From: Nanobdellota archaeon
GTDB lineage: Archaea; Nanobdellota; Nanobdellia; Parvarchaeales; Parvarchaeaceae
Assembly (NCBI GenBank): GCA_021802505.1
Contig: JAJZXE010000002.1
Coordinates: forward strand, 11,770 to 75,769
Reading direction: 5' to 3'
Length of the DNA stretch: 64,000 nucleotides
Shown here: positions 4,079-58,900 of the stretch, piece by piece
How positions within the stretch are numbered: the stretch's first letter is position 1
Layout: every line of letters begins with the position of its first letter
The notes under the pieces: generated by a model
Seen by the model: only the letters and a program-made list of their open reading frames with translations
Told to the model about the DNA's origin: nothing
Database searches by the model: none
Made by a program: the position numbers and the translations under genes

Positions 4079-4097
4079 AATGATGCTCTTTTGCAGG

Positions 4098-4748
4098 TTA
4101 ATTTAGATTGACTATGAATTCTCCGAGAACACCGGAGCCTATCCCGAGTGAATGATTCGGGCATTTAAGCATGATTCTGTTACCTAGGTAGTATTCGCCG
4201 GCATCAACCGTGATTGAATGCTTCTGTCCGCATAGCCTGCACCTTTCTACTGTAACGGTTATGTTCTTAAACTGAAACAGCTGGTTCAATGCATCGGTTA
4301 CATGCTTTATAGCTTCCAGGGCATGGAAGTCTTCAACCAGAGTGTCTTCATGCGTATAATTCCGAAGTGATTTAAGATACTGGAGGATTTCCTTGTCTTT
4401 TACCGGATTTTCACTGCAGTTTATTAGATCAAAGAGCCTCGCATACTCTAATTTGACCCTTTTGTCGGTGTTCTTTCCGTCTCTGTAGCTTATCTCCCTG
4501 ATCCCTTTTTTTGACATGTACTCTTTCAATCCCCGTTCTAAGCATCTCACCGCCAATGACAGTGCGGCATCTGGGCAGCCGTAAAGAAAAGAATGTATGG
4601 CTTCGGAATACAAACTCTTGAATTCTTTTTTAATGCCTATAAAATCATACGGGTATATAACTCTTGTCTGGATGAGCATGTTTAGTCTGCTGTTGTAATT
4701 GTCTATGTTCACCAGATTCGGCACCGAAGGAAAGGATATCTCTTCCAT
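4098..4748 (-). CDS. Hypothetical protein with C-terminal Cys/His cluster
   Basis: 216 aa. C-terminal 'CRLCGQKHSITVDAGEYYLGNRIMLKCPNH' looks like a Zn-ribbon. Nothing else recognised. Confidence 0.35.
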   Translation of the reverse strand: MEEISFPSVPNLVNIDNYNSRLNMLIQTRVIYPYDFIGIKKEFKSLYSEAIHSFLYGCPDAALSLAVRCLERGLKEYMSKKGIREISYRDGKNTDKRVKLEYARLFDLINCSENPVKDKEILQYLKSLRNYTHEDTLVEDFHALEAIKHVTDALNQLFQFKNITVTVERCRLCGQKHSITVDAGEYYLGNRIMLKCPNHSLGIGSGVLGEFIVNLN

Positions 4749-4793
4749 TTATCATATTGGTCAGTCCTGTATATTAACTGTTCTCCAGCGGTT

Positions 4794-7945: not shown

Positions 7946-8024
7946 TAATTTTTATCTGTAATAAAACAGAAAATAAAAATTCCCGGCGGTATACTCTTCC
8001 GTAAATAAGATTTTTATGGGCTGA

Positions 8025-11722: not shown

Positions 11723-11778
11723 TCTTTAATTATTTCATTAAGATATATAAACATTTCTATTATATCGTAGGAACGATA

Positions 11779-32960: not shown

Positions 32961-34265
32961 ATGTTTGATTCGATGAATATAAAAAAGGAAATACTATCTG
33001 CATTACACGAAATGGGCTTCGATGAACCTACCGAAGTACAAAAACAGGCAATTCCTTTGGGATTAGAGGGTAAAGATATAGTCGTAAAATCAAAGACCGG
33101 CAGCGGAAAAACCGCGGCTTTTCTGATTCCCATACTGAATAGCCTTGAAAATTCGGAAAGGCCGGGCGCGATGGTGATAGTACCGACAAGAGAACTGGCT
33201 CTGCAGGTCACGGACGTAGCGGAGAATATAGGGAGAAATCTCAAGATTAAAACGGTAACTGTTTACGGCGGAGCGTCGATAAATTATCAGATAAGGGAGA
33301 TAAGAAACGGCGCGAATATAATAGTAGGGACCCCTGGAAGGGTGATTGACCTAATAAAAAGAGGAGAACTGCCCACTAATTCAATAAGGTTTCTCGTACT
33401 GGATGAGGTTGATATAATGCTGGATATGGGTTTTATTGATGATATAAAGTACATATTGTCCAGATTACCGCAAAAAAGACAGACAATGTTCTTTTCCGCG
33501 ACTATTCCGGAAGAGATAAAACACATTACGCTGAAATATACGAACGATGCGGTGAATGTGAACGTAGGTTCCGGGGAAGTGACTGTTGACACTATAGAGC
33601 ATTTTTACTCCATTGCGAACGGCAGCGATAAATTTTCCGTGCTTCTCGCATATATCGATTCCAAACAGCCTGAAAAGGCGATAATATTCTGCAAAACACA
33701 GAGGAATGCGGAGAGAATTTATTCTATGGCACAAAGCATGAATCTTCCCGCGGTCTTAATGCACGGCGGACTGAGCCAGAACAGGAGGGAGCACTCCCTC
33801 AATTCATTCAGAGAGGGCGTGAAGATGCTAATAGCTACGAATGTGGCTTCGAGAGGACTGGACATAGACAACGTTTCCGATATAATAAACTTTGATGCGG
33901 AGGAAGACCCGAAAGCTTACGTTCACCGGGTGGGCAGAAGCGCGAGGATGGGAAAAAGCGGGAGAGCCTTTACCATATTCACACCCAGGGAAAAATATCT
34001 TGTTTATGAGATTGAAAGCTATGCAAAGATAAAAATGACCGCGTTGGAGTTTGATCTCGCCCAATACAGGGAGAAGGTAAAGGAATTTTACAAGGGTGAC
34101 ACTCGAAACTATGAGGATATGGCGATGAGAAGGCGCGGTTTCAGCCACGGCGGAAATTTCAGCAGAAACAGAAATACGGGAAGGAATTTCAACGGCGGCA
34201 GGAAAAACAGTTTTTCAGGGTTTAACGGCAAAAAATTCAGGCACAGCTATACAAAAGAAGACTAA
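32961..34265 (+). CDS. DEAD-box ATP-dependent RNA helicase
   Basis: Q-motif 'FDEPTEVQ', 'SKTGSGKTAAF', 'PTRELA', 'DEVD', 'SAT', 'ARGLD', 'HRVGRSAR'. Gly/Arg/Asn-rich C-terminal tail. Confidence 0.9.
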   Translation: MFDSMNIKKEILSALHEMGFDEPTEVQKQAIPLGLEGKDIVVKSKTGSGKTAAFLIPILNSLENSERPGAMVIVPTRELALQVTDVAENIGRNLKIKTVTVYGGASINYQIREIRNGANIIVGTPGRVIDLIKRGELPTNSIRFLVLDEVDIMLDMGFIDDIKYILSRLPQKRQTMFFSATIPEEIKHITLKYTNDAVNVNVGSGEVTVDTIEHFYSIANGSDKFSVLLAYIDSKQPEKAIIFCKTQRNAERIYSMAQSMNLPAVLMHGGLSQNRREHSLNSFREGVKMLIATNVASRGLDIDNVSDIINFDAEEDPKAYVHRVGRSARMGKSGRAFTIFTPREKYLVYEIESYAKIKMTALEFDLAQYREKVKEFYKGDTRNYEDMAMRRRGFSHGGNFSRNRNTGRNFNGGRKNSFSGFNGKKFRHSYTKED

Positions 34266-34648
34266 TGCTTGTTTTTCAGGAAGTTTATATAATCTATAAA
34301 TGGTTTCGGATTATCAATGCTTGTGAAAGTTATAAAGAATGCCGCGGTGCTGGCCAGCGCGATTATGCTGGTTATTTCCCAGATTATCAATGGATTCATG
34401 AAGAAAATTGAAATAAATGATACTATAAAACCGACTGAAAATGAAAATGCGGCGGTGACCAAAAAAGTAAAGGATAATGTATACCTGAAAGAATTGTTCA
34501 GCATGTAACTGCCGAAGAACTTGTTTGCATCCTGTCTTGAACCATACTTTGATGCCAGGGATAAAAAATACATAAAACTCAGCGCGGATATCAACATCAA
34601 AATCCCGGATATTATACCGGTTATACCAAAAATTTCATTGATTATCAT
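34262..34648 (-). CDS. Small polytopic membrane protein (cassette 1, partner B)
   Basis: 128 aa, 3-4 TM. ATGA overlap with the upstream gene. Confidence 0.4.
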   Translation of the reverse strand: MIINEIFGITGIISGILMLISALSFMYFLSLASKYGSRQDANKFFGSYMLNNSFRYTLSFTFLVTAAFSFSVGFIVSFISIFFMNPLIIWEITSIIALASTAAFFITFTSIDNPKPFIDYINFLKNKH

Positions 34649-35013
34649 GCAAACCTCTTAAATCTCAGATACCAGAACCTAATATCTAATATTATGAATA
34701 TGATAGTAAGAACTGCGAAGCCAAAACCCGAGAAGAAAGTGGAATACTGCAATAGTGTAGAAGGATTAAACCCGTTATCCAGATAATCGGATAAAACCAT
34801 TACACCGGCGAGAAAACCGAATATCCCTGCAAATACAAAATAAGGTATCTTAATTGTCTCGGGGTTGAGAAAATAACTGGTTAACGGGGCCTTGTCTTTT
34901 CTGTGTTTTATCAACGCCAGTAATATAATGGTAGAGTAATACATGACAAATACTCCGAGTACGCTTAAAATTCCAAACACTACCCCCTCCATGAGTTTTA
35001 GCTCTACCATCAA
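34645..35013 (-). CDS. Small membrane protein, 'KHR(K/R)DKAPL' family (cassette 1, partner A)
   Basis: 'LIKHRKDKAPLTSYFLN' and C-terminal 'RFWYLRFKRFA'. Paralogous to 46352-46768 and 47552-47917. Confidence 0.5.
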   Translation of the reverse strand: MMVELKLMEGVVFGILSVLGVFVMYYSTIILLALIKHRKDKAPLTSYFLNPETIKIPYFVFAGIFGFLAGVMVLSDYLDNGFNPSTLLQYSTFFSGFGFAVLTIIFIILDIRFWYLRFKRFA

Positions 35014-35432
35014 ACCGCCAGATAGGCAATAAACACTGCCAATAAACTCAATATTAAAGCCGATAAAAACGCATAAAGTACAAGAATATTCGCCCTTTTT
35101 AGATCTAATTCATGAAAACGTTTATTTTTCACATTTCCTTTGCCACCGCCCATGTCTGAAAGGTCGTATATTCCTGCATGGGCATTTACAACGCAGAATT
35201 TAAAAAATCCCTGATAAAACCCTATAAATCCTAGAAACAGAGGTATGATCACGGTTAAAAAGAAAGGATAAGGCTCATTGAGAATAAACAGGGCGATTAA
35301 AAGCAAGGCAGAGATTATAAATCCGACGGCACCGAACAAATATCTTTTTCTTATCTCTTTCGGACCTATATTACAACTGCCCGCAGAGTACTTTACCTTT
35401 TTATTTACCGACATATGGATTAAAAGAACCAA
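35010..35432 (-). CDS. Small membrane protein
   Basis: 140 aa, 3 TM. ATGA overlap with the downstream cassette gene. Confidence 0.4.
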   Translation of the reverse strand: MVLLIHMSVNKKVKYSAGSCNIGPKEIRKRYLFGAVGFIISALLLIALFILNEPYPFFLTVIIPLFLGFIGFYQGFFKFCVVNAHAGIYDLSDMGGGKGNVKNKRFHELDLKRANILVLYAFLSALILSLLAVFIAYLAV

Positions 35433-42366: not shown

Positions 42367-42984
42367 ATGACAAACTACGATGACCAGTACGAGGTACAAA
42401 AATTAAATTATAAAGTTCTAGATGGATTTTCTGAAAAGCAGATAAGCTTCCATCATGATATACATTACGCGGGTTACGTAAAGAAAAGGAACGAAGTTAA
42501 TAGCAAGCTTAAGACAGCGGATAAAGCGACTGCCAATGCAAATTACAGCGAATTCAGGTCGCTTAAAAAAGAAGAGACGTTTAATGCGAGCGGCCAGCTT
42601 CTGCACGAATTATACTTTGAGATGTTCGGCGGTGACGGCAAGTATACAGAAGACTTGGATATTGTAAAAAAGATAAATGAGGATTTCGGAAGTTTTGACA
42701 ATTTTAAACTTGATATGATGGCTACCGCAAAGGCAGCAAGAGGATGGGCACTGCTCGCGATAGACCCTACAGACAATAAATTAAGGGTGTTTCTTGCGGA
42801 TGCGCATAATGACGGCGCGGTCTGGGGGTCCATACCACTGATAGCTTTGGATGCCTATGAACATGCTTTCTACGTTGATTACGGGCCTGACAAGGCTAAA
42901 TACCTCGAGCCTTTCTTCAAGAACCTAGATTGGAAGAAACTGAATGAAAGGTATGTAAAATTCAAGGATGTATATAAAAAGTGA
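42367..42984 (+). CDS. sod: Fe/Mn superoxide dismutase
   Basis: 'ISFHHDIHYAGYV', 'ELYFEMFGG', 'GWALL' and 'DAYEHAFYVDYG' (DxWEHAYY metal-ligand block). Confidence 0.9.
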   Translation: MTNYDDQYEVQKLNYKVLDGFSEKQISFHHDIHYAGYVKKRNEVNSKLKTADKATANANYSEFRSLKKEETFNASGQLLHELYFEMFGGDGKYTEDLDIVKKINEDFGSFDNFKLDMMATAKAARGWALLAIDPTDNKLRVFLADAHNDGAVWGSIPLIALDAYEHAFYVDYGPDKAKYLEPFFKNLDWKKLNERYVKFKDVYKK

Positions 42985-43061: not shown

Positions 43062-43349
43062 CTAGGAAGAATCGCTGGTTATGCTTATTCTGTAGGCAAG
43101 TCCCAGGGAATACCTTGAAGAAATCTCTTTCAATTTATTTTCTATTTGATATATATTGGATAGGGCATAAAAGTCTATTTCTGCGCTGTTTTTATACTTG
43201 CTGACAAGACTCAGATTAAAATTATTTATCTGGCCGATTTTCTTTATATCCTCCTTGATTTCATTTATCTTTTCAAAATAAAAAAGATCGGATTTTCCAA
43301 TGAAAACGGATTTGCAGTCCAAAAGACTATCCTCTAAACCCTTATACAT
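43062..43349 (-). CDS. Hypothetical protein (operon gene E)
   Basis: The track ORF starts at a TTG, and the frame is closed 7 codons upstream of it. Internal ATGs at 43391, 43364 and 43349 are possible. The start is uncertain. Confidence 0.3.
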   Translation of the reverse strand: MYKGLEDSLLDCKSVFIGKSDLFYFEKINEIKEDIKKIGQINNFNLSLVSKYKNSAEIDFYALSNIYQIENKLKEISSRYSLGLAYRISITSDSS

Positions 43350-43755
43350 CTTTTTTGCCGCCATGTCTGCCCTGTACAATCCTGTATACATATGCAATAG
43401 TATATCCGCATATCCCTATTTTAACTTCTTTATTACTCGTAAAATCGATGTCAAAATTGGAGTATTCCATTTTTCCCAGCCCTTTGTGGAATAACAGCTG
43501 CAGATATTCGCTGGTGACCCCTTTCATCTCGGCGGAATTCAACCTATAGGAATAATCAAGCACCTCCGTATAGCCATTGTCGATTATGTATGAAAGCTCT
43601 TTTATAATCCGATTATACTGTCTGCCGAACACCTTCTCTACCGGCTTTTCGTTCTTTATTTTGCAGAGCCTCTCCAATACCGATCCGTATTTTGAGTTAT
43701 ATGAATCATTTTCAACCTTTTTCTTATTTTGCATAGCAGTATTACTGAAAAACAA
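43342..43755 (-). CDS. Hypothetical protein (operon gene D)
   Basis: 137 aa. No motif recognised. Confidence 0.3.
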   Translation of the reverse strand: MFFSNTAMQNKKKVENDSYNSKYGSVLERLCKIKNEKPVEKVFGRQYNRIIKELSYIIDNGYTEVLDYSYRLNSAEMKGVTSEYLQLLFHKGLGKMEYSNFDIDFTSNKEVKIGICGYTIAYVYRIVQGRHGGKKDV

Positions 43756-43775
43756 TGTTATAAATACCTTTTTAA

Positions 43776-44504
43776 TCAGAATATAGGTCTCATGCTTTTG
43801 CCTCTGCTTCCAAAGTCTGCCTCGACAGAAGCCAGCAAGTCTGAAAACTCGGTCATTTCTATCGCTCTTCCATAAAAAGCTATGGCGGCACGGGGCGTTC
43901 CAGCCACGGAGAATAGCCCGAAATCCGCGTATATATCGGGATTGTGGCCGCTGTTTAAAGTTTTCCTGTAAAGAATGTGCCTTGCTTTTCTAGGATCCAG
44001 ATCATTGAACTTGTATCCAAATATGTATGAAAAGTTTATATTTACAGAATTGGAGTAATTCAATTCCGGCAGCCTGTCATTAAAATCCGTCTCCTCTCTT
44101 AATATCCTGTTTCTTGTATCAGCTAGCCTCTTGTAGTGTTTACCCCATACCTTACTTGCAATCTGATCTCCATCTGATAAATTAAATAAGCTGTATACCC
44201 TATCTAAATCATCGCTGCCCAGTCTTTGCAGTTCATTATATGCGTTTTCCGTTAGGTTTTTTACACCGTTATGCAGAGAACCAAAATATTTTATGTAGCT
44301 TTTAAAATACGGCCTGCTGCCATGGTTTATCAATTTTTTGTACAATTCCCTGTTATTTCTAACCGCATATACATTAAGAAGAGCCTCGCTCATGACCGGC
44401 CCGAAATCAGACAAAAGATCAGACAGAGACTTTGACCCTTCCAGATCTGTTCTTTTGCCGTATTCTCTGTGGTGATTTTGATCCAAAACAATCCGCATAA
44501 TCAC
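43776..44504 (-). CDS. Hypothetical protein (operon gene C)
   Basis: 242 aa. 4-bp ATGA overlap with the upstream gene B. Confidence 0.35.
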   Translation of the reverse strand: MIMRIVLDQNHHREYGKRTDLEGSKSLSDLLSDFGPVMSEALLNVYAVRNNRELYKKLINHGSRPYFKSYIKYFGSLHNGVKNLTENAYNELQRLGSDDLDRVYSLFNLSDGDQIASKVWGKHYKRLADTRNRILREETDFNDRLPELNYSNSVNINFSYIFGYKFNDLDPRKARHILYRKTLNSGHNPDIYADFGLFSVAGTPRAAIAFYGRAIEMTEFSDLLASVEADFGSRGKSMRPIF

Positions 44505-45433
44505 TTCGATTTAAATCCGGGGTAGACAGATCTGTATTTTTCCGTGTACTTGTTGATGAGCATACTCTGGCTGAATTCTGCGTATCTTAGATGTCTACTG
44601 ATGCTTTTAACTCTGTGTGCATCGGAAGACAGGAAAGAATGTTTTGCATCCTGCTGATTTATCGGGTGTATGATTCCTATCTTTACCTCCTTCTTGTCAT
44701 TCCGGTATATGATTATGTTGTCTAAGTTTAAATTGTTATGATAAAGATTATTTGAATTTACTTCTGAGATAACACTGATAATCTGTTTCCTTAGATCGGC
44801 AAGCTCTGCTTTCCTTTTCTCGTATACTTCCTTTCTTGAAAAATATTCCTTCAGGTGCGCTTCTTCCATTGCAAGCTTCTTTACCCCGTTTTTGGCTATA
44901 AAACTATCAAGCTCATCCTTTGGGATAAGATCCTGCAGGGAAGTTACCCTGCCCATTTTCTCCGATATCAGCCGCTCGTCCCAATCTCCGTAATGGTTAA
45001 GGTAATCCCTGAGAGTTGTCATTCTTGGAGCGTAATTCTTAAATTCCCTGCCATCAAATGAAGCTGTTACATAACCGGTTTTTCTGCCCGCATCATCTAC
45101 CAGCAGTGCGATTGGTTTTGGAAAGTTCTCGGGTTTCAAAGAGTACAGCTCGCTTATAAGTTTATACTGCCTCAAGAAATAACCGTCAAAAAATCCAGTA
45201 TTATAAAGATTGTTAAACTGGTTATACTCTGCAGCATTTACCTTCGGATATGCATCTTTAAAATGCCTCTCATTGACCGACAAACCCAAATCCTCAAAAT
45301 AACCCGCTGCTTTTACTAAATCTCTGCTCAAAGTCGGATTGCCTTCCTTGTCATGTTTGTATGGCAGGCCACTGAGCACCTTTTCGATATCAGATAATTT
45401 CTTTGCCATATCTATTGATTCGCTGTTTTTCAA
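44501..45433 (-). CDS. Hypothetical protein with degenerate kinase-like catalytic-loop motif (operon gene B)
   Basis: 310 aa. 'LYHNNLNLDNIIIY...VKIGIIHP' resembles a kinase 'HxDLxxxNIL...hhDF' layout, but with Asn and His at the two Asp positions. Confidence 0.35.
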   Translation of the reverse strand: MKNSESIDMAKKLSDIEKVLSGLPYKHDKEGNPTLSRDLVKAAGYFEDLGLSVNERHFKDAYPKVNAAEYNQFNNLYNTGFFDGYFLRQYKLISELYSLKPENFPKPIALLVDDAGRKTGYVTASFDGREFKNYAPRMTTLRDYLNHYGDWDERLISEKMGRVTSLQDLIPKDELDSFIAKNGVKKLAMEEAHLKEYFSRKEVYEKRKAELADLRKQIISVISEVNSNNLYHNNLNLDNIIIYRNDKKEVKIGIIHPINQQDAKHSFLSSDAHRVKSISRHLRYAEFSQSMLINKYTEKYRSVYPGFKSK

Positions 45434-45484
45434 TACGAGTTAAGTGTTATTCTGATATAAATAACTTACTACTTAATAATAAAT

Positions 45485-45994
45485 CTAAGCCTTATAATCA
45501 GCGAGTTTCAGGCCCGTAGCAATAACTATCTTTCTCAGAGTATTCTTATCGATATCTTTTATTTTATCATAATCCAAGTAGACTTTGTACTCATTTGAAG
45601 GAGAGTATTTAATACACGCGACGGGGGTGATTGTTATTTTGCCGTGATCCTGGTTGTCTCTCTTTTTAACCCCGAAATATTCCGCTTCGGCCGCGGACCT
45701 GCTCTTGTATACCCCCTTAAGATAGAATAGCTGGGAACTGTCCTGCATTTTATTATCCGCAGGCCTGCCCTTCCGTATTACATAATCGCTGGATTTCGGC
45801 GGAAAACGGCCCTGATCCATCTTTTTCCTCAGGGAATCGTACTTTGCCTCCTTGAAATACCCGGATAAATCACTGTAGGAAAATTCCAGCAGGTCCTGCA
45901 CACTGCTGTTTGATATGTCCAGAAGAACCGATTCCAGACCGGTTCTAACCGCAGTGACTCCATCAAGGTACTTTTTTGCATTTTTCGTGAACAT
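45485..45994 (-). CDS. Hypothetical protein (operon gene A)
   Basis: 169 aa. No motif recognised. Confidence 0.35.
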   Translation of the reverse strand: MFTKNAKKYLDGVTAVRTGLESVLLDISNSSVQDLLEFSYSDLSGYFKEAKYDSLRKKMDQGRFPPKSSDYVIRKGRPADNKMQDSSQLFYLKGVYKSRSAAEAEYFGVKKRDNQDHGKITITPVACIKYSPSNEYKVYLDYDKIKDIDKNTLRKIVIATGLKLADYKA

Positions 45995-46037
45995 GCCTTT
46001 AAAAGAAAGGTAATGATATAAAAGCTTTTTGCTAAAA

Positions 46038-46355
46038 TCACTTGAGTTTATACTTCTTTGAGATGATTCTGGTCAGAGAAGAAAAGAAAAACGCAGTCCC
46101 TATCGCATATATTAATATCGCTATTAAATCCGAGTTATTCACGATATAGACAATCTGAAATATATACCCTAATGTAAATATAAAGTTCATTGAAAGAAAC
46201 AGGATAAATACATACACTGAATTATTATTGAGCCTTATAAGCTGAACCGCACTCGTTGGATTGCGGTAAAAAGCCCGTATGAACCTCAGTACAGAGACGA
46301 TTATCACTACGCCGACAATCGCTATCACCGCCGCCTCATAAAACCCGCTGCTCAT
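46038..46355 (-). CDS. Small polytopic membrane protein (cassette 2, partner B)
   Basis: An internal ATG gives ATGA coupling with the upstream gene. 3 TM. 'NPTSA' is shared with 'NPTLF' of cassette 3 partner B. Confidence 0.4.
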   Translation of the reverse strand: MSSGFYEAAVIAIVGVVIIVSVLRFIRAFYRNPTSAVQLIRLNNNSVYVFILFLSMNFIFTLGYIFQIVYIVNNSDLIAILIYAIGTAFFFSSLTRIISKKYKLK

Positions 46356-46768
46356 ATAAACCTCATAAATACCTTGGACCATTTGAAAATAACATAACTT
46401 ACCATCAGATATGTAAAGGTCCCTATAAGATCCGCAAGCATTTTAACCGAATAATTGCTTGAAACGGAGCCGTAGGAATAAACTATAAAAACCACAACGA
46501 ACAGCACCGCAGAAAACAAAAGAATGGAAAAATTGTTTTTTGATTCCTTTGAACTTAATGCCCATTCTACCAACGGAGCCTTGTCTTTTCTGTGCTTAGA
46601 CAGTGCATAAACATCAAGTATAGCGAGCAGAGAAATAACTATACCGTTTATGACTTCAAACAGCGCCCAGTAATAGTGAAACTCATCATATAGAACCATA
46701 TAATCTTGAAATGTTCGGGATATAAAAATATTTTCTTTTGTCAGTGAATAAATGTTCATCAAATTCAT
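46352..46768 (-). CDS. Small membrane protein, 'KHR(K/R)DKAPL' family (cassette 2, partner A)
   Basis: 'LSKHRKDKAPLVEWAL' and C-terminal 'IFKWSKVFMRFI'. The real start is probably the internal Met 'MVLYDEF...'. Confidence 0.5.
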   Translation of the reverse strand: MNLMNIYSLTKENIFISRTFQDYMVLYDEFHYYWALFEVINGIVISLLAILDVYALSKHRKDKAPLVEWALSSKESKNNFSILLFSAVLFVVVFIVYSYGSVSSNYSVKMLADLIGTFTYLMVSYVIFKWSKVFMRFI

Positions 46769-46806: not shown

Positions 46807-47253
46807 ATGAGAAAAAACAACAAAAAAATCAGTTTATTTGAGAGCAATTTAGTGCCGGTAATAGGAAAACACGTATTCGGGAATTTATACGACGTTGACG
46901 ATTCGATATTAAAAAATCTGGACTATCTTGAAGAATCCGTAATAGAGGCCGCAAAGGCAGGGAATCTTCACATAATAGACATAATGAAAAGACAGTTTAA
47001 TACGAAGGATTCTCCGGACATCGGCGGAGTTTCAATAATAGCACTTATTGTTGAAAGCCATATTTCACTGCATACCTGGCCGGAGAGCGGATACGCGACC
47101 TTGGATATATATTCCTGCGGAAATGAAAGCAATCCTGCACTGGCATTTGATTACATAGTATCGACGCTTAAACCCAAAAGCTACAGGGTGTTCAGTGCCG
47201 ACAGAAGCAATCCATCCGAGAATAACGATTCGAAGGTTTTCAACGATTTCTAA
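46807..47253 (+). CDS. speH: S-adenosylmethionine decarboxylase proenzyme, archaeal/bacterial class 1
   Basis: 'VIGKHVFGNLYD', 'ESHISLHTWPESGYATLDIYSCG' (the self-processing Ser and downstream block). Confidence 0.85.
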   Translation: MRKNNKKISLFESNLVPVIGKHVFGNLYDVDDSILKNLDYLEESVIEAAKAGNLHIIDIMKRQFNTKDSPDIGGVSIIALIVESHISLHTWPESGYATLDIYSCGNESNPALAFDYIVSTLKPKSYRVFSADRSNPSENNDSKVFNDF

Positions 47254-47555
47254 GAAAAGCACATAAAAAGGAAAAACAGAGTAAGCGCTGTAAACATCAG
47301 CATGTTACCGTATTCCCAGAATAACGTAGAAGGATTATTCAATGATATTACAGTTGTGATCCCGTAGTTGACGGCTAGGATCAAAGTCGTTAAAAAGAAA
47401 AATATGAACGCATACTGCTTGTATTTTTTAATGTAAAAAGAAGAGAGAAAAAGCGTCGGATTTTTATGCAGTTTTTTCCTCAGTATAATCACAAAGGCAA
47501 GCATAGCCGTTCCGAGAATCAGCGAAAATAATCCGTAGAATAAGTCTATATTCAT
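47250..47555 (-). CDS. Small polytopic membrane protein (cassette 3, partner B)
   Basis: 101 aa, 3 TM. ATGA overlap with the upstream gene. Its 3' end overlaps speH convergently by 4 bp. Confidence 0.4.
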   Translation of the reverse strand: MNIDLFYGLFSLILGTAMLAFVIILRKKLHKNPTLFLSSFYIKKYKQYAFIFFFLTTLILAVNYGITTVISLNNPSTLFWEYGNMLMFTALTLFFLFMCFS

Positions 47556-47917
47556 ACAAACCTCTTAAACAGCTTAAACCAGCGGAAGGATATGTAGATG
47601 ATTACAAAAAGAGCGACTATTCCAAACAGGTAAGCGAGTAAAAAGAATATATTGTCTACTGGAGAAAGTGCAGTATTGCCGACCAATAACTTTTGCAGGA
47701 AGGTAAATAGACCCGTTAAAAAAAGCAACAGAGAGGGATAAATAAACATATTCAACTCCTTAGTTGCCGAATCTTTATTTAAAAAAAACGCGGTCAACGG
47801 CGCTTTATCCCTTCTATGTTTGAATATAGCAAAAAAAGTTATACCGGAAAAAATGGAGCTGACACCTCCTCCTATAAACAGTATGGCAAATATTACAGTA
47901 TATACCACGTTTAACAT
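47552..47917 (-). CDS. Small membrane protein, 'KHR(K/R)DKAPL' family (cassette 3, partner A)
   Basis: 'IFKHRRDKAPLTAFFLN' and C-terminal 'FRWFKLFKRFV'. Confidence 0.5.
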   Translation of the reverse strand: MLNVVYTVIFAILFIGGGVSSIFSGITFFAIFKHRRDKAPLTAFFLNKDSATKELNMFIYPSLLLFLTGLFTFLQKLLVGNTALSPVDNIFFLLAYLFGIVALFVIIYISFRWFKLFKRFV

Positions 47918-47959: not shown

Positions 47960-48406
47960 TTAAAATCCGGTCTTTACAAGATTCAGAATCTCCTCGGCGT
48001 GCCTGTCCGGCGAGACCTTGGGGTAAATCTTTATTATTTTTCCATTTTCATCGAGGATAAACGTGACCCTTGAAGCGCTTCCCGTGATGGATTTTATCCC
48101 TAATTTTGTGACAAGCTCTTTTTTCGGATCGCTTAACAGCGTAAACGGGATGGCATATTTTTCCTTGAATTTTTTATGCGAGTCTATATCATCAACGCTT
48201 ACACCAAAAACAGGTATATTCAATGACTTAAAGGAATTTATATTGTCCCGGAAACTGCACGCTTCTTTTGTGCATCCTGGAGTATCATCCTTAGGATAAA
48301 AATACAGTATGGTCTTTTTACCCTGTAAATCATACAGTGAAACTTCCTTGCCGTCATCCGATCCGAGTTTAAAATCTGGAAACTTGTCTCCTTCTTTTAC
48401 ATTCAT
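47960..48406 (-). CDS. bcp: Peroxiredoxin, Bcp-type thiol peroxidase
   Basis: 'PKDDTPGCTKEACSFRD' (peroxidatic Cys motif PxxxTxxC), 'FGVSVD' and 'TFILDENGKI'. The internal ATG ('MNVKEGDKFPDF') avoids overlap with nth. Confidence 0.85.
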   Translation of the reverse strand: MNVKEGDKFPDFKLGSDDGKEVSLYDLQGKKTILYFYPKDDTPGCTKEACSFRDNINSFKSLNIPVFGVSVDDIDSHKKFKEKYAIPFTLLSDPKKELVTKLGIKSITGSASRVTFILDENGKIIKIYPKVSPDRHAEEILNLVKTGF

Positions 48407-48445
48407 AAGATTATTATAAATGGCGTATTTTATATATGTTGTTAT

Positions 48446-49093
48446 ATGGGAACATTTGAACTGCTCCAACGTCAAAAGGCCGTAGAAGCAATAAACACAC
48501 TTGAAGAGAAGTACAGGAACGCAAAATACTATCTGAATTTCGACGGCGCTTTGCAGCTGATGGTTGCCGCGATACTATCGGCGCAGACGAAGGATACTCT
48601 TGTAAATGAAATAACCCCGGGACTGTTTCACAGATATAAAAACGTGGATGACTTTGCGAATGCGGAACCGGCTGAACTTACTGAATATATAAAAAGGGTA
48701 AGTTTCGCCGAAAACAAGGCAAAAAACATCATAAACTGCTGCAGGATCATCAATGAAAAGTATAACGGAAAAGTACCGGATAAAATGGATGATCTGCTTT
48801 CCCTGCCGGGGATAGGAAGAAAAACCGCCAATACCATACTCATAAATGCCTTTGGTATAGTGGAAGGAATACCTGTGGACACGTGGGTCATAAGGCTTTC
48901 CTACCGCATCGGATTGAGCAAAAGCGACAAACCCGATAAAATAGAGGAAGATCTTAAAGCCATTGTGGATAAAAAATACCGGAAGAACATAGCTTATGTA
49001 CTTAAGGAACACGGACACCTGATCTGCCATTCGTCCAAGCCAAAATGCGACAGCTGTCCGATAAAAGGAATTTGTCCGAAGAACGGAGTTTGA
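48446..49093 (+). CDS. nth: Endonuclease III (DNA glycosylase/AP lyase, HhH-GPD with 4Fe-4S)
   Basis: 'LMVAAILSAQTKD', 'LPGIGRKTAN' (HhH-GPD), catalytic 'VDTWV', and the C-terminal 'CHSSKPKCDSCPIKGIC' (Cx6Cx2Cx5C). Confidence 0.9.
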   Translation: MGTFELLQRQKAVEAINTLEEKYRNAKYYLNFDGALQLMVAAILSAQTKDTLVNEITPGLFHRYKNVDDFANAEPAELTEYIKRVSFAENKAKNIINCCRIINEKYNGKVPDKMDDLLSLPGIGRKTANTILINAFGIVEGIPVDTWVIRLSYRIGLSKSDKPDKIEEDLKAIVDKKYRKNIAYVLKEHGHLICHSSKPKCDSCPIKGICPKNGV

Positions 49094-49939: not shown

Positions 49940-52900
49940 CTAGGAAACGCTGCTGAAAGTCACGGATGGCATCACTCCTGCTGGAGGATAGGCACGGGTG
50001 CGAACCCAATAGACATTTAGGTTGTAAGAAGTAGAAAACGTTGTTTGTGCAGGGTTAAGATAATAAGACACTGTTACATAAAGAGGCGTAGCAGGAACAT
50101 CGGTTGTTGTACTCCCCCAATTTGTATATCCATATTGAACTGATGTGGAACCGTTGTCAGGATACAATACTCCAAAAATATGATAATTACTATCGCTTGT
50201 TATTTGTGAAGTATCAAAATAGTTAGCAGCTGAAGTAGTCGTAGTTTCGGCTGTTATCGTAGAGTGGGCTTGTACATTTCCCGCCCAACCTACAGCGTTT
50301 TCGTTTTCACCATTGTCAGCGTGCCAAGCAGTATTATTTAAAGCAGTTAATGCGTCGGGCACTATTCTAAAATTAGTAGTGTCGAAAGAATTAGTATTGG
50401 CATAACTTTCCAATATTTGCGCCCCGCTTACAGTATAAGAAGCAGATGAGAGATAAACATAACTTCCTGCAGCTGCATTATAAGGAACCACTTCTGTAAG
50501 TCCATTATCAATGGTCAGTGTTCCGCCGCTATTACCGCTGTTCCATTTAGTCGTGTTAAGGCTTGTCCCTGCGAAGTTGTCATAGAAATTGAATACATTA
50601 GCCCCGTCATCATACTCACCGTAATTGGGAGAAAGTGTGGGGGCTTCTCCTGTGGTCTTGTTGTTGAAAAGATTAGTAGAATTGGAGGCAAATCCTATAT
50701 ATATTGTAATCGATGAAGAAGCAGGTATACTTCCGGTTTTGATCCAATAAAGGGCATTTTTGGAATAAGAGTAGTTCTCAAGCCATGATGGTATTAAAGT
50801 TCCATTGGGATAAAAGAATTCGATATTCTGGAAATTGGGAGCTGCATAACCTTTATACACTGAAGACGTCATATTTATCATCTGCTGGAACGGCTGAGGT
50901 GTAGCTGCAGACTGAGAATTGTTTATTGCGATTTTAGCATAATTTTCTACGGATGCTGGTATAACAGCCTGCCCAAAACTTATGGAAGGCATCACTCCGC
51001 TAGGTGGATAAGCGCGGACGCGAACCCAGTTTGCATGAATTATATTATTCGGGGAGCCCGGCCCGGGATTTCCAAGCGTCAAATAAAAAACAGGATTATT
51101 GTAGTTAGTTTCGGATGCAGTCATATTGTTATCGACGGAATAGGTGGTAGTTAGTATACTGGCGGTGATTGACGAGGTATTTTTTATGATGACTTGTGCT
51201 ATATAGGTTCCATTTGTACTCACGTTCTGTGCACCATTGAGGAGTGCCACCTTTCCATTATAATACCATCCACCTCTGGAATTTGCCCAAGCATTGACAT
51301 CAAATTGGTCACTGGTTGCACTTGGTGTTATGTAATTAGAACCGCCTATCATTACCATATTCGTAGAATTGATAATATCCCCCAGACTTTCAGCAATAAA
51401 AGGCGCACTGAATGTTTGATTGCTGTAAGTTATACCATCGTACGCAAAAGACCCTGCTGTGCCACCAGGTGTAATTGTAACTCCATTATTTACAGCGACA
51501 GTTACCCCACTTGGTCCGCTATTCCATCCGGCCTTTAATGTAGTCCCGGCAAAATTGTCATAGAAATTGAATACGTTGGCACCGTCATCATACTCTGCAT
51601 ATGTTGGAGATAGCTGAGGAGCCTCACCGGTAGTTTTGTTATTGAAAAGATCTGTTGAATTGTGAACCAGGCCGATTACTATGTTTGTTATGGTGGTGTT
51701 GGCTGGTATTCCATCTGGCAATTTAATCCAGAACAAAGCATACTTTGAAGTGTAATTCTCAAGCCATGAGTTTATCTTTTTATCACTGGTTTTGTTGTAA
51801 AACACCACATTCTGGAACTGGTGTCCACTGCTTAAGTTTATGTACTGCTTGTAATTTGAATAGGATAGGTTCACCAGCTCCTGGAATGGTGCTGGAGTGG
51901 CGGTTGACTGTACATTGGTTATATTTATCGGCAGGTAATAATCCAAAAGCGTAGATAAGCTAGGATTAATTACCCTCTTTATAGTTACAGAATTTGAGGT
52001 ATAATTTGCATTTCCACTGGTATTCAGTACAATCGTGTAGTTATTTGCATACTTTCCTAAGTTTATCGTCGTTGTCGTTGTTATTGTTTTATTAAGAACT
52101 CCGTTTATGTATAACGTTGCCGTTACCTGGCTGTTAATAGTAGATATTGCTGCAGTCACAGTAAGATTTGTTCCATTGTATGTGTAGTTTACACCCGGTT
52201 TTGAGGTCAAACTGAGAGAAGGTACCGCTTTGTTTATCGTCTCATAATAAGATATGTTGTTTATACTACTTGAATTTGATCCTCCAATAACTCTAATCTT
52301 GCCGATGGATGGACTGCTGGCATAAGTCGAAATATTCCTGGAAAATGACGTTAAAGACGTAACTGAGTTATTTATTATATCCCATAGTTTTACATAATTG
52401 TTATTGGATTCAACGGTAAAATTGCTTGTTTGACCGTAAATTGCAGTCACATTATTGTTTGAAAGTCCGTTTATAAACAGATTTATCGGATTTGTAACGA
52501 GATTGTTGAATTTTACAGATGGTATTATTCCGTCCGGAGGAGCAGTTGGAGAGTAATAACTTACTGCGTTGTTTGACCACAAAGCGGTATACGCTCCGCC
52601 TCCGTCCTCGTAATAATCCATTTCTATCCTAACGGTTCCTAAACTAGATTCTACCCCGCTGTAGGCTGTAAAAGGCTCTGTATGCCACTGGCTTACAAGA
52701 TTATTCGGATTTGAGGTTCCTCCTAACCAATAAGCGCCGTTTCCCTGTCCTGCCGTTGTAGAGTAACCCAGGGCTATTCCGTCATCGGAGCCGACGTAAA
52801 AAGTAGTTGCCGAATTGACCTCCGCCCATCCTATTGCTTTTATTATCCATGAATTGCCGGTGTTTGATACGGGCGGATTCGGATATGCCGCTCCGCCGCT

Positions 52901-55900
52901 GTATCCTTCCTGATAATTAATTACTACATTTGATTTGGTTGTTCCGTCTACATCCTGAGAGCTGCCCGATAAAGCGGTATAAAATGGTATGGTAGAAGAT
53001 ACCATCGAAGCACATGAACTTATGGTGACACCGTCGTTTAATGTGGCTGAATATACGTTATTCTGATAACTTCCGCTGTCACACGCCCCACCGGAATCAT
53101 AGTAGATCTGATACTGCAATCCGCTGTTCATCACATTACCGATATCATTGTACTGTCCGTAAGTCGATGACAACTGAGGTGCTTCACCCCTTGTTTTATT
53201 GTTGAAAAGATCTGTTGAATTAGAAGCAAAACCCACGGCTATGTCAAATAAAGTCGTATTTGCCTGTATACCGTTTGGCAGCTTAATCCAATAGATAGCA
53301 TAACCTGTGCCGCTGCTGATGTGATAGCTTTCCAGCCATGAATTTATTGGCTTGCCAGTTGTAGTATTAAAGAATTCAAGATTCTGGAGGGAGTGAGCAC
53401 CGCTTTGATTTATGTACTTACTGTTTGCCGAAGTTATGGTCAAATTTATCATCTGCTGGAATGGCTGTGCCGTAGAAATCGTCTCCGGATTCGTTATATT
53501 CAGAACCTGATACTTGTAGACTGAAACAGGTGTGGCTAGGGATTTCTTAGAAAATGATATAGCCAAGGAACCGTTTGATTCCATATATCCTTTGGTAATA
53601 TTAGGAATGTATACTGCCGTAGAAGTCGTTATATTATCCGGTAAAGAAAAGCTGTAGTTGCCTAGTAAATCCGTAAAATGGATAACATTAATATCGGAAG
53701 TATGCGTTTTTCCGTTGTATATAACTTTCCATGCGGTGTTAGAAGGCAGACCGGTTTCATTGAATGACGGAGTGTAATTCCAAAGCGATATGTTTGTGGA
53801 TACTCCCGCCTTAGTCATTCCCAGAGAATAACCTTTTGAAAATCCTGCTTTATAAGAGTAGATGCCTGATCCGGAAGAGAGCGAGGTTATTGAAATGTTT
53901 TTTGGAGTTATATTGCTTCTGTTTACTCCATTATAATCTACCCACCAGGTAATGTTATTTGGCAGGTTGTTCTCAATAAATTTATTTGTACAGTTCCACC
54001 CTATAAAGAAGGATATGGATCCGGCTTGAACATATTTAGACTGTGTTGAGCAGGATGAATTAGTTGACGCGGTAGCAGTGTAATTTCCGAATGGCGTATC
54101 GGGCACTGTTATTGTTCCGTTAGGTAAAATAAATGTTACTTTTGGCATAACCCCGTTGGGATACGAAATAGGCAGTGTTGGTGCCGTTAATATAAATCCA
54201 CCGGGCCCACAGCCACCGCCTCCATTTCCTCTTGAAGTGGCGAGTTTATACTCTCCGGGCGGCAAATAAATCGAGCCGTATGAGCTCAGACAGTATGGTG
54301 TATTAAAGAAGTGATTGTAGTAACCTACTCCGTTTGAAGCACCTGTTATACTTAATCCAGAATAACCTCCGTTACCTCCCGCCATATATATGTTAACATC
54401 TCCACCTCCCCATGAACAAATCATGTTTAGATTTCCGCCATATTCCATATTAAAGAAATTACCACATGAGGTGTAATTTTCACTTAGCTCTGCCGGAAGT
54501 TGAGAGCCGGTTGAAGGTTGAGGGTAAGGACCTAGATCTATAGATGTACTGTTACTAAGCTTAGCTAACACAACCGTTGAATTGGAAGCAAATCCTATGT
54601 AGATATTGGTGGATGAATTAGCGGGTATACTGCCGGGATTAAGCCAGTACACGGAGTATTTACTATAGATATAGTTCGCGAGCCAAGAGGGTATTATAGT
54701 GCCGTTCTGGTAGAAAAACTCAACGTTTTGGAAATTTGAAGCGGCCAGACCTGCGTAGATACTGTGGCTGAGATTTACAACCTGCTGTAAAGGAGAAACT
54801 GTCGAAACACCCTGTGAATTGTGTATCTTTATAACCCTGTAATATTTTATATACGCAGGTACCGCCCCTGGTATAGCAGAACTTACAGAACTTACATTCT
54901 TTCCGTCAAATGAAACAGACCATAATGAGTTTGGCGCTAAACCATTCTGAACAAACGACGTAGTGCAGATATCGGATAGTGAAAAATGAATGTTTATGTT
55001 GGTACCAGCGTTCTCTTCCGCTTGTGTAATATTAGGAGTATAAGTTGACGTACAGTTCAATGTTGAGGATACATTTGAAAGCACAGGAACTGATAAATTA
55101 TAACGTCCTGAAACTGTGCTGAACATTATAGAATTGGATGTCGCTGATTTATTTATTCCATTGAACAATGCGTACCAGTTATATCCTTGAGGAAGACCGG
55201 TTTCATTAAGATAAGTAGTAACGAGGGTTGTATTTATATCAATTGAAGGCATCACTCCTACTGGTGGGTAAGCACGTGTACGAACCCACCTAACATAAAT
55301 TGGATTGGTATATTCATTTGTTAAGGCTAAAAATATCGTTGAACTAAAAGCTGGAATATTAGTTGTTATTGTTTGTCCTGCGTTTGGTGCAGAGGAATAA
55401 GAATTAAGATAATAAATTATTCTAGATTCAGTAGCAGATATGGAATAAATGTTATATGTGTTAGTAGGATATGAACCTATTTTGTTTTGTATGCCGGCAG
55501 AAGAATATGCGTTTGTATACCAATTTCCATCCTTATAAACTTGTATCCCGAAAGCGGGGTTACCACCAAAATATGTACCCGGTACCGTATTCGTCATGCC
55601 CCAGCGAAATGTTGTAGATGCCGATGGGCTGTCTTCGTAAACATCTAAAATTATATTAGAATTCCACTGTATATTTGTATCTGCAATCCATGTTTCATGG
55701 CTTAATCCTCCCGTTCCTCCTCCAGTTAGTGATAGACTATTATTTACTGAAATACCGCTAAGAGAACCAGAGGTTTGATCACTACCGTAGCTATTCCATT
55801 TTGTAGTGTTCAAGCTCGTCCCTGCGAAATTGTCATAGAAGTTGAATACGTTGGCACCGTCATCATACTCTGCATATGTTGCTGATAATTGAGGAGCTTC

Positions 55901-58900
55901 GCCGGTAGTTTTGTTATTGAAGTTATTTGCGTACTGTAGCAATGTCCGGTTGAATATCATGTAGATAGTTATACCGCTTTTTGATGGAATACTCTTTATC
56001 TTAAGCCAATAAACAGTATTATTTGATCTGTTTGAATTCCCGGACTCAAGCCATGAAGGTATAACGCTACCGTTCTGATAAGTGAACATTATATTGGAAA
56101 GCCGGGAATTCTCATATCCGGAATACTTTGAAGAGTTAAAGCTAAGCATCTGCTGGAAAGGCTGAGAAGTCGAAATGTTCTGCGAGTTGTAAAAGGATAC
56201 CGGAAGAACAAACGGCTTTTCATAAGCCGATGTATCATTTGAAAATGCGACCGTTAGATTGCTGCCTGCCGGCAGATATGTCCTGCTTACGTTGGAAACA
56301 AAGCCGGAATTGTATTTAACTACAGGATACACAACAAGGGTGTAATTGCTGCTGTATGAAGTGATGAACTTTAAAGTGTTGTTGACAGACAATCCGTTTT
56401 TACCGCCAAATTCCGCTTCCCATTTATAACCCTGCGGAAGACCCGCTTCCTTGAAATAGCTGTAGCATATGCTTGAAAAGGTTATGTTTACTGATGAACC
56501 GGATGTAAAATTTTCTTTTGTAATCGAGGGCGTAAAAGTGCACTGACCCTGTTTTATGGTGTTTGTGGAGAATGTAAAAGTCCCGTATGTTGTATTAAAT
56601 GACAACACTGTAGTATTTGAGCTGTTTGACTGCGAATTATATTCCGCAGACCATGTTGTTTCCGAAGGCAATCCGGTCTCCCTGAAGGTGGTGATGCAGT
56701 ATGAATGACTGAAAGATACAGAAATGATGGAATCCGCGGAGATATTTCCGCTCTGCGGAGAAGGAGTATAGACGCAACCGTTTACCGTTTGATCCGGCAC
56801 GGTGAATGAATAGGTCCCTTTCGATGAATTTATTGCAATGGTGGAAGTGGTTGATGAATTTGATACGCCTGCAAAGGTGACATTCCATTTTGTAGAAGAA
56901 GGAAGACCGCTCTCCCTGAAGGTGGTGATGCAGTATTTCTCTGTGAACTTCAACTGCGTATAATTACCGGAAACCAGATAGCCGCTGGAGCTGTTTGAGT
57001 AATAGAAACAGTTGCTGTTGTTTACTGCGGGGACTAAAAATGAGTAATTTCCTGGCGGAACATTGAATAGGATAGTAGACTGGGAAGATGAATTGTCTAT
57101 GCCGTCGTATGTAACCTTCCATGTAGTTCCAGAAGGCAGACCTGTCTCTGTAAACCCTGTAAAACAGTTACTGGCAAATGTTATACTCTTGTTGGAACCT
57201 GCCAGTATACTGCCGGATGAAGGCGTGGGATCCAGATAGCAGTTAGCCGAGACCTGTATTGAAGACACTGTAAAGGAAAAATTACTGTAGATAGAGGAGA
57301 TAAGCAGTGATGAGGTGGAGGAGAAGTTAGTTATCCCGTCGTATGTAACCTTCCATGTAGTTCCAGAAGGCAGACCTGTCTCATTGAAATAGGTGTTACA
57401 TAGCGCGGAATAGCCTATTGTAATGGAGGTTCCGGCGGACAGGTGACCAGATAATGGTGAAGGCGTGAAAAGGCAGTTGCCGCTCTTTATCGTGTACGCG
57501 GTGAAGTTAAAGGTCCCGGGAGAAGTGACAAAGGAGATCAGATTACCGGTGCTGTCATTCTCGGTCTTGTTCGCACCGTTATATGACAGGGTAAAATTGA
57601 TGTTTTTTGGCAGTCCAGACTCCTTAAAGTAAGATGTACATCTTGTCTGATTAAATACAAGATATATATTCGAGCCGGCTGCAGCCGTTGAATTCGTAGT
57701 TACCGTGTAAAAACAGTTGTCTATGGTCAGGTTGCTTATAGAATATGCAAATTTACCCGGCGGCGTGATGAAAGAAATTTCGCTGCTATTGGAAGTTTCG
57801 TTTATCCCGTCATAAACAACGTTCCACTTCGAACTTTTAGGCAGGCCATTCTCTATGAAGTTGGTAGTGCAGCCGCCAGAATAATTTATTATCTTGGAAG
57901 AGCCGGCTGCCAAACCGCCCGAAGAAGGAGAAGGCTGGTAATAACATGTGGAATTCCCGACATAGGATGCGGAGAAGACGTACGTGCCGTTTAGCGATGG
58001 AACTTTTATCGAATTTGTATTAGAAGACGTGGCAATTCCATTGTAGGTTATACTCCAGGTCGTATTCAACGGCAAACCGGTTTCATTGAATGTAGTATAA
58101 CACTTTGCGGAAAAATGGATCTTCTGCAACGACCCCGTCACTGTACTGCCACTGCTTGGGGAACTATAATACGTACAACCGCCTATTTTTACGTTTGCAA
58201 CGGACAGCTTAAATATCCCTGCCGGAGTAACCACGGAAACATTCCGTGAAGAAGTAGACAATTGTATCCCGTCATAAGTAAGATTCCATTTCGTCCCAGA
58301 AGGAAGACCGCTCTCAATAAAAGTGGTGTTGCAGGTGTTTTCTGTAAAAGTTATGGCCTCGGAAGACCCTGCTTTCAGGGTGCCGGATGGCGGCGATGGG
58401 AGATAGCTGCAGCCGGAATATATGGAGGAGTATGAAGAGAAGGAATAACTGCTGTTAGAAGTCACAAAGGTTATGTTCTGATTTGATGACTTCTTTGTAA
58501 CGCCGTTATAGGTTATATTCCACAATGCACCTGAAGGAAGAGACTGCTGCATGAATGTAGTGTTGCATTCCAAAGTGTAGGAGATGGCTACGGAACTTCC
58601 TGCAGAAAGCGAACCCTTGGTAGTATCCGGCTGGTAATAGCAGCCGCTGCCGACGCTGACTATGGAAGGATAGTAGGTATGACTGCCGGGAGAAGCCAGT
58701 ATTATTATTTTGCTGCCTGATGAACTGTTTGTGATGCCGTTGAAGTCAACGCTCCATTTTGTAGACGAAGGAAGACCTGTCTCGTTGAAATAGGTGGCGC
58801 AGAAATTATTATAGACTATATTAACCGTACTGCCTATCTTCGCCAGTCCGCTGTTGCTTGTAAGATTAATGTTACAGCCGCTTACAGAGATATTTTTTGG

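Follow-up and report, generated by a model that had tools for sequence, protein, structure and literature searches.

A predicted pseudokinase family and its fast-evolving neighbour genes in the chromosome of Parvarchaeum

Introduction

Pseudokinases are well studied in eukaryotes, and their cataloguing in bacteria is only beginning. In its operational sense the term covers any kinase homologue without at least one of three residues, the β3 lysine, the aspartate of the HRD motif and the aspartate of the DFG motif (PMC12599244). The bacterial ActPs2 family combines an Asp-to-Asn exchange in HRD with loss of the DFG motif, and pseudokinases with alternative catalysis are on record (PMC12599244). 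Here we examine a cluster of five small genes (A–E) on the minus strand of contig JAJZXE010000002.1 (assembly GCA_021802505.1), from a Nanobdellota archaeon of the Parvarchaeaceae; unless a locus is named, all coordinates refer to the window, i.e. the whole stretch of 64,000 nucleotides (nt) that was analysed (contig positions 11,770 to 75,769). One of the five, gene B, can with high confidence be described as encoding a pseudokinase derived from a family of minimal kinases.

The genus Parvarchaeum comprises tiny archaea of acid mines (ARMAN), which are ultra-small and depend on a host from the Thermoplasmatales. Parvarchaeota belong to the DPANN archaea and have genomes of 0.64–1.08 Mb with about 900 genes (PMC5864196). 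In the literature no paper was found that ties Parvarchaeota to pseudokinases.

Kinase homology of gene B

The open reading frame (ORF) of gene B and its refined version are as follows.

44501–45433, minus strand: longest ORF of gene B, 310 amino acids (aa) from a TTG codon
44501–45409, minus strand: gene B from its likely true start (ATG 45409), 302 aa, by cross-species alignment

Residues 230–257 of the protein carry LYHNNLNLDNIIIY...KIGIIHP. An earlier note on this DNA had read this segment as the layout of a kinase catalytic loop followed by a DFG segment, with both catalytic Asp replaced, and had offered a pseudokinase or a non-kinase fold of the ATP-grasp type as explanations. Four independent lines (profile search of the PDB, exhaustive profile search, hhalign and Foldseek) agree that the likeness is one of homology, and judged by them B is remotely but truly homologous to small minimal protein kinases and not a mere look-alike of them.

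A profile of 12 B sequences retrieves weak matches from the PDB sequences (E 0.04–1.5), eight of nine of which are protein kinases. They share a single register, in which the αE helix is followed by the pairing of HRD with HNN and then by the conserved Asn and the strand that leads into DFG; at the catalytic loop B was aligned to HRDLKPDN of RAD53. When the B alignment was turned into a HMMER profile and run exhaustively against 1.84 billion representatives, 14 proteins were returned at E ≤ 0.001, with nothing but kinases and kinase-like proteins outside the B clade. Among them are two multi-domain true kinases (P0017 and P0023) and the small proteins P0018–P0025, which carry HGDLxxxN...K(I/L)IDP and match the Pkinase, RIO1, Kdo and APH models. 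P0022 (MCL5009593.1), annotated as 'protein kinase' of Ca. Parvarchaeota, exceeds the gathering score of Pfam Pkinase (36.5 vs 31.7 bits). Direct comparison of the B family with these intact relatives by hhalign gives a probability of 99.0% and an E value of 5.8e-18 over B residues 87–261.

The structural comparison that the earlier note had proposed for all five proteins was made with AlphaFold 2 (AF2) models of A and B; for A it returned no PDB match, and for B it led to kinases. The B model has a predicted local distance difference test score (pLDDT) of 78.3 and a predicted template modelling score (pTM) of 0.75, and its top 50 Foldseek matches in the PDB consist of kinases and pseudokinases only, including both JAK2 domains (JH1 and JH2), PRPK/Bud32, STK40, PEAK3 and KKT14. 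Kinase-clan Pfam models were found in the 12 B members exclusively below threshold (Kdo in seven, PK_Tyr_Ser-Thr in five, Pkinase in one), and the Pfam scan of the window protein itself gave no kinase-model match. An ATP-grasp fold was ruled out because every sequence and fold match of B is a protein kinase, and no ATP-grasp protein is among them.

Catalytic residues and the helical insert

The counterparts of the kinase active-site elements, and a segment particular to B, map to the following positions.

44717–44740, minus strand: catalytic-loop counterpart H232-N233-N234-L-N-L-D-N239 (H-G/R-D-x-x-x-x-N in kinases), placed by alignment
44663–44671, minus strand: DFG-equivalent counterpart I255-H256-P257 (IDP in intact relatives), placed by alignment
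45164–45172, minus strand: αC counterpart R88-Q89-Y90 (E-E-Y in intact relatives), placed by hhalign mapping
44816–45013, minus strand: B-specific helical insert between hinge and αE, residues ~141–206 (~65 residues), a gap in the relatives (hhalign, MAFFT)

Both hhalign and MAFFT align H232-N233-N234 to the H-G-D of HGDLxxxN in the intact relatives and N239 to their catalytic-loop Asn. H232, N233, N234, L235 and N239 are invariant in the 12 B sequences. The position of the catalytic Asp of kinases is Asn234 in all B-family sequences and in P0016, the homologue from the outgroup, so that the Asn noticed earlier is a trait of the whole family. The same does not hold for the His noticed with it: position 256 is His in the window species only, and every other B-family sequence as well as P0016 has Asn. 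N239, the metal-binding residue of HRDxxxxN, does not vary in the B family or in any of the relatives. In the αC counterpart, R88, Q89 and Y90 are invariant in the B family and fall within a predicted helix of the model (83–99), with Gln89 aligned to Glu or Asp in most intact relatives.

The replacements are all isosteric amides (αC Glu to Gln89, catalytic Asp to Asn234, metal-binding Asp to Asn, with His256 in the window species), and together with Asn239 they are fixed across the whole B clade and the outgroup. P257, N259 and D262 are likewise invariant or nearly so, and the dead pocket is among the best-conserved parts of the protein. Such a pattern would fit a pocket still in use, for binding and not for catalysis.

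The third residue of the operational definition cannot be placed, since the N-terminal 86 residues of B contain no invariant Lys. In the N-lobe the alignment with the relatives cannot be relied on; what MAFFT sets against their VxVK reads NLYN and is predicted to be helical. With two of the three defining residues certainly lost, and the αC Glu in addition, B classifies as a predicted pseudokinase, the option already raised in the earlier note, and represents a new, unannotated pseudokinase family. The AF2 model places helices at 141–162, 172–182 and 184–227, and the helical insert is also present in P0016.

The five genes and their taxonomic range

All five ORFs were confirmed, co-directional and on the minus strand, between a convergent gene for an Mn/Fe superoxide dismutase (sod) on one side and two genes for small membrane proteins on the other. 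Alongside gene B they are:

45485–45994, minus strand: gene A, ORF of 169 aa
43776–44504, minus strand: longest ORF of gene C, 242 aa from a GTG codon
43776–44498, minus strand: gene C from its likely true start (ATG 44498), 240 aa, by cross-species alignment
43342–43755, minus strand: longest ORF of gene D, 137 aa
43342–43734, minus strand: gene D from its likely true start (ATG 43734), 130 aa, by cross-species alignment
43062–43397, minus strand: longest ORF of gene E, 111 aa
43062–43364, minus strand: gene E from its likely true start (ATG 43364), 100 aa, by cross-species alignment

The cluster is kept in at least ten species-level lineages of Parvarchaeota. In the closest pair with unsaturated synonymous sites (L008–L016), the ratio of nonsynonymous to synonymous substitution rates (dN/dS) is 0.14 for A, 0.08 for B, 0.16 for C and 0.17 for E; gene D has 0.10 on the pair L008–L018. 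Because the genes are conserved in other Parvarchaeota genomes and their dN/dS lies at 0.08–0.17, A–E are taken to be genuine protein-coding genes under purifying selection and not chance ORFs. Their amino-acid sequences change about 5–10 times faster than those of neighbouring genes: the flanking speH, sod and padR have dN/dS values of 0.01–0.02 (L008–L016), and across the species-level loci identity to the window is 80–89% for sod and speH and 65–78% for padR, compared with 28–47% for A, 50–60% for B, 40–51% for C, 43–56% for D and 29–39% for E, the least conserved of the five.

As had been noticed from the letters alone, none of the five proteins can be assigned to a family, and scans of Pfam, NCBIfam, PHROGs and PADLOC gave no match above threshold. 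Nor did those scans and hydropathy analysis reveal a signal peptide or a nuclease, protease, NTPase or membrane-toxin domain. The suggested cytoplasmic location agrees with the lack of any transmembrane or hydrophobic segment in A–E (19-residue Kyte–Doolittle maximum ≤ 1.1, vs 2.3–2.8 in the neighbouring membrane proteins).

The B protein recurs identically on contigs of GCA_027374635.1 and of several ENA assemblies. Every homologue of A, B and C belongs to Candidatus Parvarchaeota/Parvarchaeum, with the original ARMAN-5 scaffold GG745589 among the sources; the Thermoplasmatales setting assumed earlier must accordingly be replaced by a DPANN one, as exact and related matches alike belong there. 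Wide word-indexed searches yielded 13 clusters for B, 12 for C and 15 for A, all from Parvarchaeota, and no homologue of A, C, D or E was detectable outside this group. A scan of Joint Genome Institute metagenomes returned solely a contig already among the loci analysed.

Genes A, C, D and E

The product of gene A is predicted to begin with a helical segment, which a six-stranded β sheet and, at the C terminus, a helix follow. Its AF2 model is confident (pLDDT 90.2, pTM 0.86) and has no fold match in the PDB or in BFVD, a set of viral structures; since a confident model finds no counterpart in the structure sets searched, A is a candidate for a new fold.

Gene C, an orphan restricted to Parvarchaeota, starts 2 nt past the stop codon of B in the window and within ~25 nt of it in all species (2–10 nt in most). 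Many of its charged or polar residues are invariant, including R129, N130, E136, R142, D168, R170, K171, R211 and E214. Gene E begins inside the 3' end of D, and with the refined starts the overlap measures 23 nt and recurs in other species. The earlier note had named a sequencing frameshift that merges D and E as a possible undoing of its gene list; since the overlap persists across species and either gene can be found where the other is missing (E without D in L009 and L011, D without E in L020), it is not an artefact of this kind.

Profile searches of the PDB sequences with A, C, D and E came back empty, and no weak Pfam signal recurs across the members of these four families. Two further candidate relationships were discarded. 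The segments SNFDIDFTSNKEVKIGI of D and INNFNLSLVSKY of E look like the catalytic segment of B, and an all-vs-all hhalign comparison of the five families stayed below a probability of 4%, so internal paralogy was rejected. A Rosetta-stone link was rejected as well, with hidden Markov models (HMMs) of A, C, D and E scoring ~0 bits against the N-terminal extensions of intact kinase relatives.

Gene content and history across lineages

Gene content was determined by tblastn and HMM searches of the loci.

Window species; L008/L013, L012, L014, L016 and L018: A, B, C, D, E
L015 (contig edge, A not assessable): B, C, D, E
L011: A, B, C, E; D absent
ARMAN-5, L019 (upstream cut off, A not assessable): B, D, E; C absent
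L009/L017: pseudogene of A, then B and E; C and D absent
L020: A, B and an inverted D; C and E absent
L021, a more distant Parvarchaeales genome used as outgroup: adjacent A-like (E 1.4e-10) and B-like (E 2.7e-40) genes only

The linkage of the genes is conserved in relatives, as the earlier note had wished to see checked, and this conservation is found at the loci of Parvarchaeota. The five genes do not form an obligate set: B is the sole constant gene, and each of the other four has been lost in some lineage. C is absent from L009, L017, L019, L020 and L021, D from L009 (with L017), L011 and L021, and E is present in every ingroup lineage but L020. One reduction concerns A, which in L009 (7676–8000, and also in L017) is a deletion pseudogene with an internal deletion of ~320 bp and an early stop, and which retains its TATA box and ATG next to an intact B and B promoter. 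In a neighbour-joining tree of B plus sod, rooted on L021 and without bootstrap, the reduced lineages lie among or beside those with all five genes, and the reductions would therefore be independent losses. Because adjacent A-like and B-like genes occur in the outgroup, A and B appear to be the older pair, with C, D and E confined to the ingroup.

The cluster occupies the same chromosomal slot in every genome examined, in the order dcd, nth, ahpC, a membrane-protein pair, speH, a second membrane-protein pair, A–E, sod, padR and an ABC transporter, and this slot is still recognisable in L021.

Promoter-like elements and transcription units

Three conserved boxes resembling archaeal TATA elements precede genes of the cluster in the window, at distances that are canonical for archaea.

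46016–46023, minus strand: TATA-box-like TTTTATAT, 22–29 nt upstream of the A ATG, at the same distance in 8/8 species
45455–45461, minus strand: TATA-box-like TTTATAT, 46–52 nt upstream of the B ATG, at a similar distance (~46–54 nt) in 6/8 species
43758–43764, minus strand: TATA-box-like TTTATAA, 24–30 nt upstream of the D ATG, conserved in 8 readable species

The consensus before A is TTTTATA(A/T), and its spacing of 22–29 nt suggests a leaderless transcript. Before B the box was not seen in L011 or L020, among the eight species with readable upstream sequence. Before D the consensus is TT(T/A)ATAA, 23–30 nt from the ATG in all eight species with readable upstream sequence, L020 with its inverted D being left out. 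Between the box and the ATG of B, five species share a leader, TTTACAATTAAAAAGTAATTAAA, four of them exactly and one as a variant (L008 ~7955–7995 and equivalent sites in L009, L012 and L018; the window counterpart at 45410–45450 has diverged). This leader could be a regulatory or ribosome-binding element.

Because conserved boxes stand before A, B and D, and C and E abut the gene that precedes them, the cluster probably comprises three transcription units (A, B–C and D–E), and the single five-gene operon proposed earlier is unlikely. A scan with sigma-70 promoter and intrinsic-terminator models, which are not applicable to archaea, stayed at background level, and the intergenic regions gave no Rfam match to structured RNAs at E ≤ 1.

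Genomic context

The earlier note had also considered a defence or toxin/immunity system. PADLOC-DB v2 recognises no system here and gives no match to A, C, D or E; B reaches PD-T4-6 and MkoA below threshold, over a generic kinase segment (E 1e-3 to 2e-2). Relatives of A or B are absent from IMG/VR, and the base composition and GC content are ordinary. Together with the lack of a BFVD match for A, these results led us to reject a viral or mobile origin, and the fixed slot amid housekeeping genes further speaks against a defence island. We hold with high confidence that A–E are a vertically inherited chromosomal cluster of real genes restricted to Parvarchaeum.

In L016 a 401-aa gene of the TnpB/OrfB type (IS200/IS605-like; 4074–5279, minus strand) sits between the membrane-protein gene M1 and A, whose promoter box is intact, and an OrfB_IS605/Cas12f-like gene lies at the edge of L002, a contig of the window species. 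Among the intact kinase relatives, P0021 lies between two DUF7557/ParE-like pairs (L026 3231–6234) and P0022 ~2.5 kb from a nucleotidyltransferase/HEPN pair (L024 8077–9062); these toxin–antitoxin-like neighbours could be a clue to the ancestral setting of the minimal kinases.

Small multi-pass membrane proteins are encoded in recurring cassettes on the minus strand at 46038–46768, 47250–47917 and 34262–35432. They have no family match and are conserved in all relatives. Two of their proteins, M2 and M4, are paralogous (25–27% identity), with a further paralogue ~8 kb away. Their link to A–E is not strict: neither L020 nor L021 has the M2–M1 pair upstream of A. The surroundings at 42367–42984, 46807–47253 and 47960–49093 are rich in oxidative-stress and repair genes (superoxide dismutase, AhpC-type peroxiredoxin, endonuclease III) and include S-adenosylmethionine decarboxylase; the same genes flank the A–B pair in L021, alongside dodecin and FMN reductase. 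Farther away, a single ORF of 4221 aa with a DUF2341 match spans 49940–62605 (minus strand), with lengths of 4221–4540 aa in related contigs, and is likely to encode a giant surface or adhesion protein. Giant proteins of this kind have been reported in DPANN archaea.

Interpretation and alternative explanations

We favour, at a probability of roughly 0.55, a pseudokinase-centred cluster in which B would be a non-catalytic scaffold or ligand binder, A its partner, and C–E accessories. B descends from small minimal protein kinases, a family in which HGDxxxxN and IDP are retained by other members, including one from Parvarchaeota; the acidic residues for phosphotransfer have turned into amide look-alikes, and a long helical insert has been gained. 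The protein would no longer transfer phosphate and may instead act as a scaffold or a ligand/nucleotide-binding switch, with the conserved pocket and the insert as its binding surfaces, a role that we propose with moderate to low confidence. A, with its putatively novel fold, would be the original partner, whereas C, D and E would have come later as accessories, each dispensable on its own. Several points weigh against this interpretation. The model of B is of moderate confidence and its Foldseek scores are weak (E ≥ 0.012, TM ~0.3), as expected because the N-lobe is remodelled and the insert large; that same remodelling leaves the position of the β3 Lys unassignable. Invariant D262 and D271 just past the DFG-equivalent could be migrated catalytic residues, which would mean residual or altered catalysis. 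The pseudogene of A in a lineage that keeps B implies that B can function without A. Finally, the putative promoters are AT-rich motifs in an AT-rich genome.

It is unlikely, though worth serious thought, that A–E are five functionally unrelated orphans side by side in a small and slowly rearranging genome, with B acting alone or with partners encoded elsewhere. The separate conserved promoter-like boxes of A, B and D, the independent losses of A, C, D and E and the inversion of D in L020 would all fit, and adjacency by itself says little because synteny is just as strong throughout the neighbourhood (dcd, nth, ahpC, speH, sod, padR, ABC). Such a chance assembly is harder to reconcile with the short B–C gap in all species and the D/E overlap, both suggestive of co-translation, with the narrow phylogenetic range and similarly raised dN common to all five genes, or with an A–B adjacency that survives in the outgroup amid differing surrounding genes. 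A more specific proposal, which we regard as doubtful, makes the A–B pair with its C–E add-ons a signalling or host-interface module peculiar to Parvarchaeum: B would be a non-hydrolysing sensor or switch with an amide-substituted, conserved nucleotide pocket, A its partner of unseen fold, and the fast evolution would stem from the interface with the Thermoplasmatales host.

Still less probable is a B that remains an enzyme with non-canonical chemistry, of the SelO or SidJ type or through migrated residues, and that forms with C a small modification or small-molecule pathway. Its pocket residues are invariant where decay might be looked for, Asn239 has been retained as the metal-binding residue, invariant D262 and D271 come after the DFG-equivalent, and C is rich in invariant charged and polar residues. 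On the other hand, all three acidic positions have been replaced at once and no β3 Lys is identifiable, C is missing from four ingroup loci (three independent losses, in L009/L017, L019 and L020) and from the outgroup, B being present at each of them, and C has no family match that would point to an enzyme class. Least probable of all, in our estimate, is a conflict system (anti-virus or toxin/immunity) or a host-interaction module of an episymbiotic archaeon, its fast evolution driven by an antagonist or by the Thermoplasmatales host. The 5–10-fold faster amino-acid change, the gene content that differs between species and the toxin-like neighbours of P0021 and P0022 would be in keeping with it, and so would the PADLOC matches of B to kinase-containing defence proteins, except that these cover a generic kinase segment at E ~1e-3. 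Against it stand the fixed slot and vertical inheritance across all lineages including the outgroup, the lack in A–E of effector domains, signal peptides or transmembrane segments, the absence of integrase or other mobile-element hallmarks in the window species and of viral homologues in IMG/VR, and dN/dS values well below 1.

Comparison with known systems

The closest relatives of B, the minimal kinases P0018–P0025, form an uncharacterised metagenomic family with sub- or near-threshold matches to Pfam Pkinase, RIO1 and Kdo/WaaP. B is homologous to them over αC, β4–β5, the hinge, αE, the catalytic loop and the DFG-equivalent strand, and shares with them a P-x-A-L-I/V-x-D...G-Y motif as well as a C-lobe that is short and stops not far beyond the metal-binding loop. 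Unlike B, with its Q, HNN and I(N/H)P, they keep the αC Glu, HGD and IDP; B further differs in its helical insert of ~65 residues and its N-terminal region. Their genes stand alone, each in a different and unrelated context, and no ORF resembling A, C, D or E lies nearby.

In layout only, a small atypical kinase-fold protein encoded with small partners is reminiscent of Bud32/PRPK and Cgi121 in KEOPS, and human PRPK ranks 2 and 14 among the fold matches of B. Unlike B, Bud32 keeps its catalytic residues. A KEOPS-like assignment (B as Bud32, A as Cgi121, E as Pcc1) was tried and rejected, the A model having no PDB match and the profiles of the four genes other than B retrieving nothing from the PDB sequences.

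Beyond B and the candidate new fold of A, the cluster is a lineage-specific curiosity with no bearing yet on a long-standing open question. B itself is a clean natural example of a kinase turned to another use: it is free-standing and clade-fixed in a DPANN archaeon of ~900 genes, and its retention under purifying selection in so streamlined a genome would imply a non-catalytic role. Like JAK2 JH2, which is among its top structural matches in Foldseek, and like the bacterial ActPs2, it has Asn in place of the catalytic Asp of HRD, in what would be a retained kinase fold. There is no sequence relationship to either beyond the superfamily, and B has lost the αC Glu as well; with ~300 aa, it is neither a domain beside an active kinase nor part of a membrane receptor. 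In its isosteric amide swaps, B resembles the 'dead' mutant that a biochemist would design.

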